DNA of 63,963 nucleotides, filler included, from an uncultured archaeon (lineage in GTDB: Archaea > Iainarchaeota > Iainarchaeia > Iainarchaeales > 1-14-0-10-31-34), in NCBI GenBank assembly GCA_964442255.1. It is 3 parts of 3 records of this genome, joined end to end, with 100 filler letters (N's around TTAATTAATTAA, not from the genome) between each part and the next. Parts side by side here need not be neighbours in the genome. Positions count along the whole stretch, not along the records: positions 1 to 28,579 come from CAYTYC010000015.1; positions 28,680 to 56,999 come from CAYTYC010000016.1; 1 more part is not named here. One strand, 5' to 3'. Shown here in pieces: positions 27,001-30,000 of this stretch. Each line of letters opens with the position of its first letter. Position 1 is the first letter of the stretch. Made by a program: the position numbers.

Positions 27001-30000
27001 AAGGCATTGCACAATTAAATGGCTTTCACCGTATAAAAAGCTTTTCCTTTCCCGCCCTCTGCAAAAAAGGCGCCTGAAAAGGTTTATTAAGTTTGTTTGA
27101 ATAATTCCATATAAACTGCAGGGGTGGCGGAGTGGTTTAACGCGGCAGCCTGCTAACGCGGTTTCGCCCGCGTGCGACGAGATACGTCAAGGGGTTTCCC
27201 TTTGGTCAACCCCTTATAAATATGTTTTTTGTTGCAAGGCAGAAAGCTGTTGCCCTTATGGGCGCGCGAGTTCGAATCTCGCCCCCTGCGTTTATGCCGG
27301 CTTTCCACAAAACCAAACGAAGAAAACCCGCCCCAAAGTTTGGGGAAGACTACTTTCAAGCCAACAAAAAAGACTTTAATCCGGCGTTTTTCGTAAAAAG
27401 CCTGCGAGAACGCTCTGGAATGCTGGCAAAAAACCACAGGAAGGCAGAGCAGGTAGCAAATACCCTTACAGGCGTTTTATCATACTTACTGAGAACTGCT
27501 AGCAACCCTGAACCTTTGAAAAAGTCTGATTTGATAAAGCTTAGAGAATTAGATTGGAAAACGCAAAAAATACATGAATCGTTTTGGGAAGACATGCAAA
27601 AGATTTTTTCAGACGGGTATCTGCAAAGAGCCGGATTCGGGAGGGGAGGGCATGCAATAGATGAACACCGCAAAAATATTCACGAGATTGCTCGCAGAAA
27701 AAACGAGATTAGAGCTGCAATGAATGCCCTTTGGTCCACTAAAAATCATCAACCGGTTAGGCCGCCAAGCAAGATACGGCCTATTGACGAAGGATAAAAC
27801 ATAAAAACCAAACCTTGAGTACAGATTGTTGCGGAAGGCGCAAAGTGGAAAAAAATGGGCTTGAGGATAATAAAACACGCGAGAGAAAGAATGCATGAAT
27901 ACGGCATAACCGAAGAACAAATCAAAGAAACCCTGCAAAACCCGGACATATTGTCGGAGGGAAAACAAAAAAGAAAGATCGCCCAAAAAAGGTTAAATAC
28001 TTACATATTAAGGGTTATATATGAAAAAAACGGGGAAACCAAAACAGTTATCACGGCCTACAAAGCAAAGAGGGAAAGGTATGAAATATGAGTACGACAA
28101 GGAATCCGACATCTTAACCATTAAGCTGAGGGACGAAAAGCCTGATTTCGGGGAACAGACAGGCAATGTAATCACCCACTACAACAAGGAAAACAGGCCC
28201 GTGGAAATCGAGATACTGGATGCAAGCGAAACCGCCCTGGAAATGCTCAAGGCAATGCTGCCCAAAAAGGCGGTTGCCAAAGCTTAATAACTTTTTCTTG
28301 CCCAACTAAGAACAGGCACGGCGGGATACCGAAGTGGCCAAACGGGTCAGACTCAAGTGAACTTTTTTAGAAAAAAAGTTTAATCAAAAAAAGCTTTTTG
28401 AGAAAAAGCTTTAGCAAAAACCTCCGCTTACGCGGAGAAAAACTTTTGATGAATTGTTTGGAGAGATCTGATGGCTTAGTGCCTTCGGGGGTTCGAATCC
28501 TCCTCCCGCCAAAACTTTTTTGGAAAAAAAGTTTTATCAAAAAAATTCTGCCTTCGGCAGTAAAACTTTTTGGAAAAAANNNNNNNNNNNNNNNNNNNNN
28601 NNNNNNNNNNNNNNNNNNNNNNNTTAATTAATTAANNNNNNNNNNNNNNNNNNNNNNNNNNNNNNNNNNNNNNNNNNNNTTTTGAAAAGTTTCTCCGCCG
28701 AAGGCGACCCTTTTTGATCAAACTTTTTTGAAAAAAGTTTGTTTTGATGAAACTTTTTCCCAAAAAGTTTCCCCCTTAAGGAAGCCGTCTACTTTTCCAA
28801 CACAGGAACCACAAAAACCTGCAGATTTTTTCGCGTCTTCCACTCTTTTGTCCACTTTGACGTATTTGAGTTTTCTGTGCCTAATCACTAACCCAGGAAT
28901 CTGTTTCTTTAGTTTTTCATGGAATTTTTGCTGGCCCGCATACTGTTCCGGCTCTATTTTAAGACTTTTAATCGCGTCATAGAAGAAAGACCTTTGAATG
29001 TTAAACTTTTTTGACAGTTCTGAATAAAACCAGCCGTATTCAAAACAACCAAATATTTTGTTTTGCTTCAACCCATGGTAAAGGTTTGAACCGTCAATAA
29101 ACAAGTAGCTTTTTTTTTCATGATGAAAATGAGCCCGGGTTTGCCGAAGCAACCGCGGGGCTGCAATAAAGACTATTATATGTTTCATCATTTTTAAAGC
29201 TTTCTGGTAAGGCAAAAAACGAAAAAACCCCCAAAATAAGCCAAATAAGGAAGAAAGCCCCTTAAACCAATCCGTGCTTTCTTGGCTTTTTGAAGGCGTG
29301 CATATAATTTAATTATTGGTTACCCTAATGCTTATTTATGCCTGGCAAAATTAAAAAGCCAAAGCCTGCAGCAAAAAATAAAAGGGAAAGGTATTTGGGG
29401 CTGAAAAGGCTTCCGGAAGGATTTTCCTGGTTCAGGGCAAAGGCATACGAAATGGTTGTAAGCACTGCGGAAGCAAAACGCTTTATCCCAGGCAACTGGA
29501 ACTTCAAGAGCCTTGCGCCCGCAGAACCGGTGCCTGTTGAAAGCGTGCCGCAGGCTGTCAGGGGCTTCACCAAAAAAACAGGGAAAAAGGTTTTCGGCTT
29601 TTTCCTTAAGCCAGTTAAAGAGGCCGCCCAGTTGGAAGACCTGCTTGAATTAAAGAAAAGGGTTAAAGTAGAGGAGCCGCTTGGGTTGATTGTTTTTTGC
29701 GGAGGCCTGCAGCCAAGAAAAAGAAAGAAAGCGGCTGAACTGATGAAAGCCGGGCAGATTTACGCGATAACAAAATTTGCGGAAGGCTCTTTGCTTGGTG
29801 ACATAATATGGGTGATGTTTCCGGAAAAAAGAAAAACAAAGATAGTCGGGGACCTGGGAAAATGGATGTCTGACTTTCACAAATCTGGCAGGGTCCACGG
29901 CGACGTGCACCCTTGGAATTTCATTGTCCCTGAAACGGAGTTAATTTACGAGCGAAGGAGGCTTAAGCCCATAACGCTTGACCCTGAAACGATTCAAAAT

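Follow-up and report, generated by a model that had tools for sequence, protein, structure and literature searches.

A 68-nt pseudoknotted repeat in tRNA introns and at tRNA ends of Iainarchaeales is very probably a small mobile element

We analysed a window of 63,963 nucleotides, filler included, which is the whole stretch of DNA under study here, from the genome of an uncultured archaeon of the order Iainarchaeales (GCA_964442255.1). The window contains a 68-nt repeat, hereafter element E, which very probably represents a small and new structured mobile element. In the full reading, towards which we lean slightly, E would be a non-coding, non-autonomous mobile element of this order that is constrained by its fold and inflates introns at tRNA cut sites. 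A search of the literature found no paper on such an element or on the tRNA introns of this lineage. Below, G000 denotes this genome, and the other G-numbers denote other genomes.

One copy of E lies within a tRNA-Ser(GCT) gene (Table 1). Infernal (RF00005) scored this gene at 43.8 bits with an insertion of 91 nt, and an explicit cloverleaf-plus-BHB model paired 7/7 positions of the acceptor stem, 3/4 of the D stem, 5/5 of the anticodon stem and 5/5 of the T stem. The same model placed a canonical bulge-helix-bulge (BHB) intron of 89 nt at position 37/38, with the 4-bp central helix CTGC:GCAG fully paired (4/4) and two 3-nt splice bulges, T36 A37/A and AA/A38 (slash, splice point). The ARAGORN label of 'Ala(tgc)' for this gene is wrong, since the explicit model gives Ser(GCT). 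The minimum free energy (MFE) fold of the pre-tRNA retained the cloverleaf and the BHB (z = -4.3), in agreement with an earlier note on this DNA, which had described both, with an AAA bulge at the 3' splice site. In this intron, hairpin 1 of E stacks straight after the 5' bulge, where a canonical intron would have an outer helix h' between its two ends, and in the MFE fold the copy-specific intron tail pairs with the linker. E at this locus also folds alone (-26 kcal/mol, z = -2.75).

Table 1. Element E, its parts and the tRNA genes that surround it, in positions of the window
Feature	Position	Strand	Details and evidence
tRNA-Ser(GCT) gene, class II	27118..27290	+	Infernal RF00005, explicit cloverleaf + BHB model, MFE fold
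tRNA-Ser(GCT) exons and intron	5' exon 27118-27155; intron 27156-27244; 3' exon 27245-27290	+	
Element E, 68 nt	27156..27223	+	first base = first intron base; nhmmer E-value 4.6e-19; covariance model 89.8 bits
Hairpin 1	27156..27173	+	stem ACGCGG / CCGCGT, loop TTTCGC (27162-27167); sequence reading; covariation
Pseudoknot 3' strand CGAG	27178..27181	+	partner, loop bases 27163-27166 (TTCG); helix 2 covariation
Conserved box ATACGTC	27182..27188	+	columns nearly invariant
Clamp helix P3, 5' strand ATAC	27182-27185	+	partner 27220-27223; covariation
Hairpin 2	27189..27215	+	stem AAGGGGTT / AACCCCTT, semi-conserved apical part TTTCnnTTTnnTC; 8 covarying pairs
TATA-like tail TTATAAATAT	27214..27223	+	TT closes hairpin 2, ATAA = junction, ATAT = P3 3' strand
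Copy-specific intron tail	27224..27244	+	GCAG (27239-27242) pairs with anticodon-loop bases 32-35; AA/A = 3' splice bulge; explicit model, MFE fold
Second E copy in the window	11509..11577	-	in the 89-nt intron (11489-11577) of tRNA-Glu(TTC), gene 11454-11617; 63.8 bits
tRNA-Leu(CAA) gene	28320..28511	+	37/38 intron of 108 nt (28358-28465), made of another repeat, the A/T palindrome 'module C'

In the whole genome, nhmmer detected 18 copies of E (E-value <0.01), and the covariance model detected 18 strong and 2 weak copies (E-value <1e-3). Eight of them occupy canonical introns, in the genes for Ser GCT, Arg TCT, Glu TTC, Glu CTC, Gln TTG, Gly CCC, Pro TGG and Pro CGG, which bears out the earlier count of about 20 copies with 8-9 in BHB introns. 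Four copies begin 0-3 nt past a full tRNA 3' end (Val GAC, Gly GCC, Leu CAG and Leu GAG), one lies behind a tRNA-like 3' half that is a partial Infernal hit only (C3:56190), and two lie behind duplicated or decayed tRNA-Leu 3' ends (C17:23067 and C5:26175). The claim that most of the other copies abut tRNA 3' ends held for five of them but not for the copy at C12:23199, which lies 84 nt behind tRNA-Val(CAC) with other hairpins between. The copies in the Ser GCT and Arg TCT introns are 91% identical, as are the Gln intron copy and the Leu GAG trailer copy. When contigs of three DNA runs were aligned to positions 22800-28500, no joint that skips E was found, and the contigs break inside E.

The giant tRNA introns described earlier proved real. 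We found 37/38 introns of 76-259 nt in 17 of 25 re-modelled ARAGORN candidates, and the listed lengths were reproduced (Cys 221, Trp 216, Pro(GGG) 187, Glu(CTC) 181, Gln 170, Tyr 147 and Asp 137 nt); the Asn length (259 nt) is unreliable because an assembly gap lies inside it. ARAGORN without introns gave no tRNA in the window, and its run on the spliced candidates was too permissive for use. The central BHB helix is fully paired (4/4) in all 8 E-bearing introns of G000, and in simple introns hairpin 1 begins at intron base 1 or 2. Other hairpin modules also fill introns and trailers, and the palindrome of module C opens the 3' trailer of tRNA-Leu(CAA) as well, at 28512. Read by eye, a strong hairpin stands at the very start (offset 0-3) of about 16 of the 41 readable trailers in G000, and in several of them its loop could pair with bases just downstream. 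The Gly(CCC) intron holds module B in G001 and E in G000, the Gln intron apparently carries E within the loop of a module-B hairpin (sequence read by eye), and the Pro(CGG) intron of G016 consists of one sense and one antisense copy. In one genome of genus g3, E at the tRNA-Ser(TGA) locus is separated from the tRNA by 90 nt that hold other hairpins. Because module content differs between orthologous introns, these introns change by gain and exchange of modules. Several long tRNA introns consist mostly of E, and this part of the earlier proposal of intron growth is supported.

The conserved fold of E is more elaborate than two hairpins. Bases in the hairpin-1 loop pair with those that open the box, which gives an H-type pseudoknot with connecting loops of 1-2 nt, 1 nt and 5 nt, and a clamp helix (P3) of 3-4 bp between ATAY of the box and the terminal ATAT of the tail encloses hairpin 2. 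The pseudoknot is new relative to the earlier note, which had missed it, and both it and the clamp are absent from the model used for search and alignment. Among 100 distinct copies, covariation was found in all four helices: 90.1% of cells were paired in E compared with 65.2% in shuffles, and the covariation score was 0.611 compared with 0.175 in shuffles, with 0 of 500 shuffles reaching the observed value and slid controls at or below 0.12. In helix 1, 5/5 pairs changed on both sides. In the pseudoknot helix 2, 87% of cells were paired (pair 11:37, UA 59, CG 17, GC 7; pair 12:36, CG 73, GC 8). The clamp gave UA 84, AU 9 and GC 1 at pair 42:138, and AU 85, GC 2 and UA 1 at pair 41:139. Hairpin 2, for which 6 of 8 compensated pairs had been counted before, showed compensatory changes on both sides in 8/8 pairs with 96% of cells paired. 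The junction bases AUAYGUC and AUAA are near-invariant.

We compared G:T with A:C mismatches and found 35:5 in hairpin 1 and 33:12 in the pseudoknot, 68 to 17 together. This excess indicates that the sense strand folds, and together with the pseudoknot it suggests that E is read as a single strand, most likely RNA. The sequence of E is constrained by this fold of one strand, most likely RNA and not ssDNA. Antisense copies keep the structure equally well, and dispersed copies showed no clear difference in decay from tRNA-linked ones, in both cases with a search model that selects for structure. As the earlier note had found, no Rfam family matches E; this holds in Rfam 15 even at E-values up to 10, with ribozymes, riboswitches and sRNAs included. 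Within 27050-27350 only the tRNA scores, and the other matches lie far below gathering scores and on the opposite strand.

The covariance model (E-value <=1e-3) also detected E in 30 of the 150 other Iainarchaeales genomes searched, where copy numbers ran from 1 to 19 and the closed genome G016 held 12; the earlier figures, 26 genomes and 10 copies, were thus slightly exceeded. In a small sample of other orders of the phylum, E was found in 0 of 11 genomes from five other families. Of 103 unique copies, 14 lie in introns and 19 at tRNA 3' ends, and 5 copies abut a tRNA 5' end on the opposite strand. Hairpin 1 begins 0-3 nt from the cut in 33 tRNA-linked copies. Some E-bearing positions are conserved across families, with three genomes sharing the Ser GCT intron, two each the Glu TTC and Pro TGG introns, and two the tRNA-Tyr 5' side; this pattern is as compatible with vertical inheritance or a host function as with mobility. 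The mean identity of copies was 0.573 within genomes and 0.481 between genomes, and 59 of the 103 copies have their nearest neighbour in the same genome. On viral contigs, a degenerate pattern that finds G000-like copies only gave at least 117 stretches; 1 of 80 loci examined scored with the model (29.5 bits), and no convincing stems were seen on reading it.

Evidence for insertion came from the flanks. Flank duplications of 11-36 nt scoring at least 11 were found in 18 of the 103 unique copies, and 15 copies scored at least 13, above every shuffle maximum (<=12). In 12 of the 18, no base separates the upstream repeat from E, and in the other 6 its end lies within 3 nt; the repeat thus adjoins the first base of E, and 0-66 nt of unrelated filler follow the last base. 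In G094, a perfect 22-nt duplication surrounds a 68-nt copy with no filler, and the duplicated segment is single-copy in the same-genus genomes G108 and G114. In G016, two 100% identical copies sit at loci about 27 kb apart with different duplications. These results support the earlier view of a multi-copy mobile element with flanking duplications outside tRNA genes, for which 20-39 nt had been given. Counting against it, duplications were absent from 53 of 70 non-tRNA copies and from 32 of 33 tRNA-linked copies. By eye, the junctions of duplicated copies share no common motif, and no guide-like match was found between a duplicated segment and its own E (longest common word, mean 5.0, compared with 5.24 for mismatched pairs).

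We also examined candidate movers. Of the 31 E-positive genomes, 5 carried the reverse transcriptase domain RVT_1 (PF00078), as did 15 of the 120 E-negative ones, and it was absent from G000, G016 (closed, 99% complete), G092 and G011; a reverse transcriptase was rejected as mover on this lack of association across the 151 genomes and on its absence from high-copy genomes. No known enzyme for an RNA route occurs in these genomes. For the Y1 transposase (PF01797) the counts were 9 of the 31 E-positive genomes and 34 of the 120 E-negative ones, with none in the high-copy genomes G016 (closed), G092 and G011, and a Y1/RAYT transposase was rejected on the same grounds; G000 has two Y1 genes. An autonomous partner beside the copies was likewise rejected, as no transposase was present among 38 ORFs within 45 nt. 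Pfam matches were found in 33 of these ORFs, all housekeeping (RNA polymerase B, aminoacyl-tRNA synthetases, thermosome, DNA ligase, CarA/CarB, PurL/PurQ and ribosomal proteins among them), and in none of the other 5. Gene contexts here and below derive from crude ORF calls of at least 80 aa.

The earlier note had read the modules as promoter-like mini-elements with a TATA box, and on this reading E would be a promoter-carrying DNA mini-element, with the terminal TTATAAATAT a working TATA box for downstream DNA and the hairpins accessory. The tail is present in most G000 copies and contains a TATA-like octamer. It resembles stretches about 30 nt upstream of G000 tRNA genes, such as CATATAAATAC before tRNA-Pro(TGG). 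Behind three copies that follow a tRNA (L041, tRNA-His-E-HisRS; L081; L082), an ATG lies at +19 to +27 and a regex detected no Shine-Dalgarno-like motif, which would suit leaderless mRNAs, and copies abutting tRNA-Tyr on the other strand leave that gene no other TATA-like stretch within about 60 nt (flank read by eye). However, the last four tail bases form the P3 strand that covaries with ATAY of the box. Columns 131-132 are AT in about 76% of all copies and GG or GA in about 20%, and the tail reads GG/GA-TAATAT in about a fifth of copies from other genomes. No conserved purine-rich BRE was found directly upstream of the tail, because the bases there are the variable, covarying 3' arm of hairpin 2. 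Among 89 non-intron copies, a gene on the same strand begins in the 70 nt downstream of only 15, 26 face the 3' end of a convergent gene, and between co-directional genes 15 copies are sense and 18 antisense. At L043/L044 the Shine-Dalgarno sequence begins 6 nt past the tail, which leaves too little room for that TATA to set the start site, and at the tRNA-Ser(TGA)-FKBP locus 3 of 5 genomes have a tail-less form with no other obvious TATA. The tail is therefore not simply a promoter, and the promoter-element reading is unlikely; promoter activity of the tail is possible in a few places, to judge from the three copies followed by an ATG.

A host-serving cis RNA module has a somewhat better, still small, chance of being correct. 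Hairpin 1 and the pseudoknot, at the exact 5' end of the RNA left by cleavage or splicing, would be a processing or stability signal. It might, for instance, protect a co-transcribed downstream mRNA from 5'-3' exonuclease attack at its 5' end or supply the BHB outer helix, and it would spread through recombination and duplication. The tight spacing of hairpin 1 from the cut in the 33 tRNA-linked copies suits this explanation, as do the hairpin-led trailers of G000 and the positions conserved across families. At the tRNA-Ser(TGA)-FKBP locus, hairpin 1 and the pseudoknot follow the discriminator directly in 4 of 5 g3 genomes while the rest varies, and in G063 they stand about 90 nt further downstream. 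Against it, half of the intergenic copies run antisense to their neighbouring genes, E is missing from 120 of the 150 genomes of the order, and a role for excised intron copies is not obvious. The target duplications and identical copies at unrelated loci, moreover, need insertion and not recombination alone. That E is the remnant of an ssDNA transposon of the IS200/IS605 or REP/RAYT type, with hairpins recognised on ssDNA by a Y1 (HUH) enzyme, we regard as very improbable. Structure is conserved while sequence varies, G:T wobble is tolerated in DNA hairpins too, inverted doublets occur (L040 and the G016 Pro(CGG) intron), and G000 has its two Y1 genes; but the Y1 domain shows no link to E and is missing from three high-copy genomes, one of them closed. 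Families of this type insert without target duplication beside a fixed 4-5 nt target, whereas the duplications of E are long and show no common junction motif by eye. A loop-to-downstream pseudoknot is not known from IS200/IS605 or REP/RAYT ends. The least credible reading makes E a small catalytic or enzyme-mimicking RNA that sets its own 5' end, either through self-cleavage of the kind seen in HDV-like and hatchet ribozymes or through mimicry of the tRNA acceptor stack for RNase P or RNase Z. The exact 5' boundary at RNA cut sites and in dispersed copies, the compact pseudoknot and the near-invariant junctions speak for it, but no Rfam ribozyme family matched, host enzymes already cut the same sites, and the strand order appears to be unlike that of the pistol, HDV-like and twister folds.

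We next compared E with known systems. In the 'transposition' of Thermoproteales tRNA introns, near-identical introns occur in different tRNA genes of one genome (Fujishima et al. 2010, via PMC4090602 and PMC10714607), and the mechanism is stated as unknown in the review passage. As far as these passages describe them, E resembles those introns in its near-identical sequences across tRNA genes (the 91% pairs) and in the BHB kept at junctions; it differs in being a structured module of defined size (68 nt) that occupies the intron only in part, always at 37/38 in modelled genes, and in occurring also at tRNA ends and, with duplications, between protein genes. E resembles MITEs in its small size, its many copies and its lack of coding sequence, and also in having target duplications, a patchy distribution and subfamilies specific to single genomes. 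Unlike them it has no terminal inverted repeats: in the 103-copy alignment its inverted repeats are internal stems only, and its ends are a variable hairpin-1 arm and ...ATAAATAT. Its duplications of 11-36 nt vary from copy to copy and are not short or fixed, filler follows the 3' end, and no parent IS was found. REP/REPIN/BIME sequences with RAYT are short structured extragenic repeats, at times in inverted doublets or arrays, that can affect RNA stability; E shares this form and differs in its lack of Y1/RAYT association, its target duplications, its pseudoknot and its strong tie to tRNA processing sites.

The R2 retroelement has its 5' end set by processing of a host co-transcript through an HDV-like ribozyme. 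With SINE-type retroposons and R2, E shares an intact, fixed 5' end, a ragged 3' end beside the downstream repeat, variable target duplications, conserved RNA structure and a presumed dependence on host transcription. It differs from them in that the high-copy genomes have no reverse transcriptase, there is no A-rich or common 3' tail, and the tRNA is not in the copy. IS1634-type elements are 1.9-kb autonomous IS with a transposase, inverted ends and long direct repeats of variable length; E is alike in its long, variable target duplications and lacks the transposase and the inverted ends. Small RNAs housed in pre-tRNAs include the C/D box sRNA in an archaeal tRNA-Trp intron and tRNA-sRNA dicistrons. 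E is similarly a structured RNA that tRNA processing enzymes would free from an intron or trailer; it differs in having no variable single-stranded guide and in being multi-copy and mobile. By eye, no family-wide C/D boxes (RUGAUGA and CUGA) were seen in a 105-row alignment of E.

In the mobile-element reading that we favour, hairpin 1 would form first, its loop would then pair with the box into the pseudoknot, and the clamp would then enclose hairpin 2. E would multiply within genomes and, outside tRNA genes, insert with an 11-36 bp target duplication. Copies would accumulate and persist where the first base of E falls on a site at which tRNA processing enzymes cut RNA, namely the first base of a 37/38 intron, 0-3 nt past the discriminator, or, on the other strand, the mirror site at a tRNA 5' end. 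At such sites E would be cut away by the splicing endonuclease or by the enzyme that processes the 3' end, which would make it harmless and could explain its persistence. The earlier idea of a 'safe landing site' is thus fair for where copies persist, but it leaves unexplained why the first base of E sits at tRNA processing sites. Together with two or three other hairpin repeat families, E would inflate introns to 76-260 nt. New copies may arise from processed intron or trailer RNA, as the fixed 5' end and ragged 3' end suggest; such an RNA intermediate is possible, though doubtful. We propose, more tentatively still, that E is the first recognisable agent of archaeal tRNA-intron gain. The active copies would be those in pre-tRNAs, from which tRNA enzymes would release RNA whose 5' end is fixed and pseudoknot-capped and whose 3' end is ragged. 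Some as yet unrecognised host activity would copy this RNA back into DNA, and is invoked because no canonical reverse transcriptase is present. This would yield dispersed copies flanked by 11-36 bp duplications, and introns would arise or lengthen wherever a BHB can still form.

The origin and movement of archaeal tRNA introns is an open question; a 2026 preprint on Asgard tRNA introns states that no tested arrival route explains the gains. E offers a rare traceable case of sequence gain. One sequence family is found in three states, in BHB introns, at tRNA ends, and freshly inserted elsewhere with duplications, the closed genome included, so that donor, product and footprint are all open to study. 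E also adds an unreported, strongly covarying pseudoknotted fold to the short list of DPANN-type structured non-coding elements, and it indicates that an apparent TATA box can be a strand of an RNA-type helix.

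Plain ARAGORN found no tRNA in the window; with introns allowed, it called three tRNAs in contig C15, which supplies positions 1-28579, and 42 throughout the genome under study (G000; 1.28 Mb, 51 contigs). We re-modelled 25 ARAGORN candidates by an explicit cloverleaf and bulge-helix-bulge (BHB) test. The gene hosting the focal copy of the 68-nt repeat studied here (E), which matches the Infernal tRNA model at 43.8 bits with 91 nt inserted in the anticodon loop, was identified as a class II tRNA-Ser(GCT); its ARAGORN label 'Ala(tgc)' was rejected as an error caused by the intron's length. 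The MFE fold of the pre-tRNA retained the cloverleaf and BHB (z = -4.3). Introns of 76-259 nt at position 37/38 were present in 17 of the 25 genes, the 259-nt length of the Asn intron being unreliable because it includes a run of N, and the intron lengths in the earlier note were reproduced (Cys 221, Trp 216, Pro 187, Glu 181, Gln 170, Tyr 147, Asp 137). ARAGORN also called a second, intron-less tRNA-Ser(gct) on contig C4, so G000 may hold two Ser(GCT) genes, one with an E-bearing intron and one without. The tRNA-Trp intron, whose central BHB helix reached only 2/4 in the model, carries a pair of GCGATGA boxes within its 3' half, preceded by hairpins of another repeat, module C. C/D box sRNA occurs in tRNA-Trp introns of other archaea, and by analogy these boxes may mark one.

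A covariance model, R1, was built from 16 G000 copies of E. BLAST, an nhmmer profile and R1 agreed on 18 strong and 2 weak copies, in line with the roughly 20 noted earlier; together with the re-modelling, these searches confirmed a repeat module in long tRNA introns. Canonical introns house eight copies (Ser GCT, Arg TCT, Glu TTC, Glu CTC, Gln TTG, Gly CCC, Pro TGG and Pro CGG). Where the intron is simple (six cases), hairpin 1 begins at its first or second base, while the two compound introns (Gln, Glu CTC) hold copies of another module and then E. Another four begin 0-3 nt past the discriminator base of a complete tRNA (Val GAC, Gly GCC, Leu CAG, Leu GAG). A tRNA-like 3' half precedes one copy (C3:56190), and tRNA-Leu 3' ends that are duplicated or decayed precede two (C17:23067, C5:26175). 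The remaining copies are found within arrays of other small hairpins downstream of tRNA genes; the C12 copy, said to abut a tRNA 3' end, is actually 84 nt downstream of tRNA-Val(CAC).

Comparison of loci revealed gain and exchange of modules. The tRNA-Gly(CCC) intron consists of 52 nt of module B in G001, a genome of the same family, versus 126 nt with E in G000. In the Gln(TTG) intron of G000, E appears by eye to sit inside a module-B hairpin loop (CCTCCC TTAA [E] TTGT GGGAGG). At the tRNA-Ser(TGA)-FKBP locus of genus g3, hairpin 1 and the pseudoknot described below directly follow the discriminator in 4/5 genomes; two genomes have full E and three a short form without ATAYGTC and tail, and in G063 90 nt of other hairpins separate the tRNA from full E. 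The long introns are thus mosaics of several interspersed hairpin families, of which E is the most elaborate.

Module C is an A/T palindrome, about AAACTTTTT-nn-AAAAAGTTT, often then ATCAAAAAA. It occurs well over a hundred times in G000, opens the Leu(CAA) trailer and fills several tRNA introns (Leu(CAA), Ser(TGA), Ser(CGA), Trp and Pro(GGG)). Many contigs end with a copy, and the assembly is probably broken by it. Module B (AATCAGAACC-nnnn-GGTTCCGATACC-TCCCTTAAnTTTCnGGGA) comprises two hairpins linked by CGATAC, and one to three units open the Gln, Asn, Glu(CTC) and Asp introns on their 5' side. This module also directly follows tRNA-Leu(TAA) and makes up the Gly(CCC) intron of a sister genus. 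Read by eye, some 16 of the 41 readable trailers of G000 tRNA genes start with a strong hairpin at offset 0-3. A further trailer family, TTTGCCGG-CTTCT-GCCGGCA-GTG..., then GCCATGC-TAGC-GCATGG, begins 1-3 nt past the discriminator, and its first hairpin loop could pair with bases just downstream, as in the pseudoknot of E.

Coordinates of the focal copy of E, its host gene and related features (window positions where no contig is named; contigs are of G000 unless stated)
Feature	Position	Details
Focal copy of E	27156-27223 (+)	
tRNA-Ser(GCT)	27118-27290	host gene
Focal intron	27156-27244	89 nt, exactly at 37/38; central helix 4/4 (CTGC:GCAG); 3' bulge AA|A
Second tRNA-Ser(gct)	C4:12499-12587	
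tRNA-Trp intron	C26:9158-9373	216 nt
Module C	18-67	
Module C	28359-28411	
Module C	28512-28533	
Module B	C1:84132-84210	
Module B	C4:5475-5555	
Module B	C22:20017-20153	
Module B	C5:25841-26070	
Module B	L112	G001
TTTGCCGG trailer family	C47	Pro(GGG)
TTTGCCGG trailer family	C9	Arg(TCG)
TTTGCCGG trailer family	C1:106660	Pro(TGG)
TTTGCCGG trailer family	C24:7830	Gly(TCC)
TTTGCCGG trailer family	C28	Gly(CCC)
TTTGCCGG trailer family	C24:5007	Val(TAC)
Tail-to-tail pair of E	C35:11325-11452	L040, G092

R1 matched 30 of 150 other genomes of the order (E-value <=1e-3), with 1-19 copies per positive genome (G092 19, G011 17, closed G016 12, G054 11, G065 10). In a phylum-wide sample every positive genome belonged to the same order, and 0/11 genomes of five other families gave a match. 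Among 103 unique copies, 14 lie in tRNA introns, 19 start -3 to +1 nt from an ARAGORN tRNA 3' end, and 70 lie elsewhere. Read by eye, five of these 70 abut the 5' end of a tRNA encoded on the other strand: two at Ile TAT, one at Leu and two at Tyr GTA, the last two in genomes from different families. A further copy forms the antisense part of the inverted pair that takes up the entire 151-nt tRNA-Pro(CGG) intron of G016 (L074). That pair, like L040, is tail-to-tail, and locus L050 (G019) has exact tandem repeats of E plus 32 nt. At L041 (G054), E lies between tRNA-His and the histidyl-tRNA synthetase gene, with an ATG 18 nt past the tail; at L073 (G016), E with a 13-nt duplication occupies the spacer between halves of a split RNA polymerase subunit B gene.

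We then compared 45 nt upstream with 90 nt downstream of each copy, using 20 shuffles per copy. Direct duplications scored >=11 in 18/103 copies, 17 of them in the 'elsewhere' class, and >=13 in 15/103, above every shuffle maximum (<=12 for any copy). The upstream repeat runs exactly up to the first base of E in 12 of the 18 and comes to within 3 nt of it in the remaining 6; the downstream repeat starts 0-66 nt past the last base of E. The duplicated segments showed no common motif by eye and no complementarity to E. In G094, a 68-nt copy lies without filler inside a perfect 22-nt duplication of the end of a radical-SAM gene, a segment that is single-copy in G108 and G114 of the same genus; this copy fixes the limits of E as hairpin 1 through ...ATAT. 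Closed G016 has two 100% identical copies ~27 kb apart, one in the purQ/purL spacer and one before a pyruvate-ferredoxin oxidoreductase gene, with different duplications (~17 nt versus >=33 nt). Mean identity was 0.573 within genomes versus 0.481 between them, and for 59/103 copies the nearest neighbour was in the same genome. On G000 contig C17, the last 21 nt of tRNA-Leu(GAG) recur after E and ~95 nt of other modules, at least 3 times and across assembly gaps, which is the same duplication signature with a tRNA as target, in G000 itself.

A structure-guided alignment (87 loci, 31 genomes; 105 rows, 100 distinct) revealed two helices beyond the known hairpins, both absent from the search model. 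In the pseudoknot, hairpin-1 loop bases pair with the four bases opening the conserved box (TTCG:CGAA/CGAG, TCCG:CGGA, TGCG:CGCA, ACGG:CCGT, AGGT:ACCT, GGGT:ACCC, CAG:CTG); pair 11:37 reads UA 59, CG 17, GC 7, and pair 12:36 CG 73, GC 8, UG 4, UA 3, AU 2. In clamp P3, box ATAY pairs with the final four bases of 'TATA': 42:138 is UA 84, AU 9, GC 1; 41:139 is AU 85, GC 2, UA 1; 44:135 is UA 47, CG 4, with 45 cells unpaired, mostly C:A. Over all 21 pairs, 90.1% of cells were paired versus 65.2% in shuffles, and the covariation score was 0.611 versus 0.175 (reached by 0/500 shuffles); sliding pairing partners 1-3 columns gave <=0.12. The clamp is the weakest part of this evidence: most AU cells at 42:138 belong to one genus and one other genome, and thus reflect perhaps three or four independent events. 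The modelled fold has the geometry of a classical H-type pseudoknot (stems 5-6 bp and 4 bp; loops 1-2, 1 and 5 nt), on which the clamp is predicted to stack, enclosing hairpin 2 via an internal loop, GUC opposite AUAA. G:T pairs versus A:C mismatches numbered 35:5 in hairpin 1, 33:12 in the pseudoknot and 11:17 (no excess) in hairpin 2. The excess in the first two indicates that it is the sense strand, in single-stranded form, that is constrained, be it as RNA or as single-stranded DNA. In G016, the L039 Ser(GCT) intron copy and intergenic L073 look identical by eye over the 3' 41 nt from box to tail, with unrelated hairpin-1 and pseudoknot halves, which suggests that halves of E recombine.

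The tail had also been proposed as a promoter (TATA box), and it may play a double role. It resembles TATA-like sequences ~30 nt upstream of G000 tRNAs, and three copies behind tRNAs have an ATG at +19 to +27 with no Shine-Dalgarno-like motif by regex. Against a general promoter function, the tail shows covariation with the box, it reads GG/GA-TAATAT in about a fifth of copies, and no BRE is conserved. By crude ORF calls, a same-strand start lies <=70 nt away for only 15 of 89 non-intron copies, 26 face a convergent gene, and between co-directional genes 15 copies are sense and 18 antisense; at L043/L044 a Shine-Dalgarno sequence starts 6 nt past the tail. The earlier proposal of a mobile, promoter-like module inflating introns is therefore supported in its mobile, intron-inflating part and not in its promoter part.

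As for how E moves, copying into DNA from processed RNA would fit the footprint best, because the fixed 5' end coincides with RNA cut sites, the ragged 3' end adjoins the downstream repeat, the duplications are long and variable in length, and structure is selected on the sense strand. Against RNA copying, reverse transcriptase is missing: PF00078 has no hit in G000, G016, G092 or G011, and its presence shows no association with E (5/31 positive versus 15/120 negative genomes). Likewise, the Y1 transposase family PF01797 is absent from high-copy G016, G092 and G011 and shows no association (9/31 versus 34/120). The 38 ORFs adjoining copies were housekeeping genes or without Pfam hit, and the search of viral contigs turned up no convincing copy.

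Among described phenomena, intron 'transposition' in Thermoproteales comes closest, its mechanism being stated as unknown in PMC4090602 and PMC10714607; a 2026 preprint reports no general arrival route for Asgard tRNA introns. Our literature searches returned nothing on an element like E. It lacks the tested defining features of the other candidate families: unlike MITEs, it has neither terminal inverted repeats nor a fixed short duplication; unlike REP/RAYT and IS200/IS605 derivatives, it shows no enzyme association and has duplications; unlike SINE-like retroposons, it has no accompanying reverse transcriptase; and it matches neither C/D sRNAs nor any Rfam family. We conclude that E is a new pseudoknotted, structure-constrained mobile module, in which a pseudoknot and a clamp are added to the two hairpins already seen in the earlier note.
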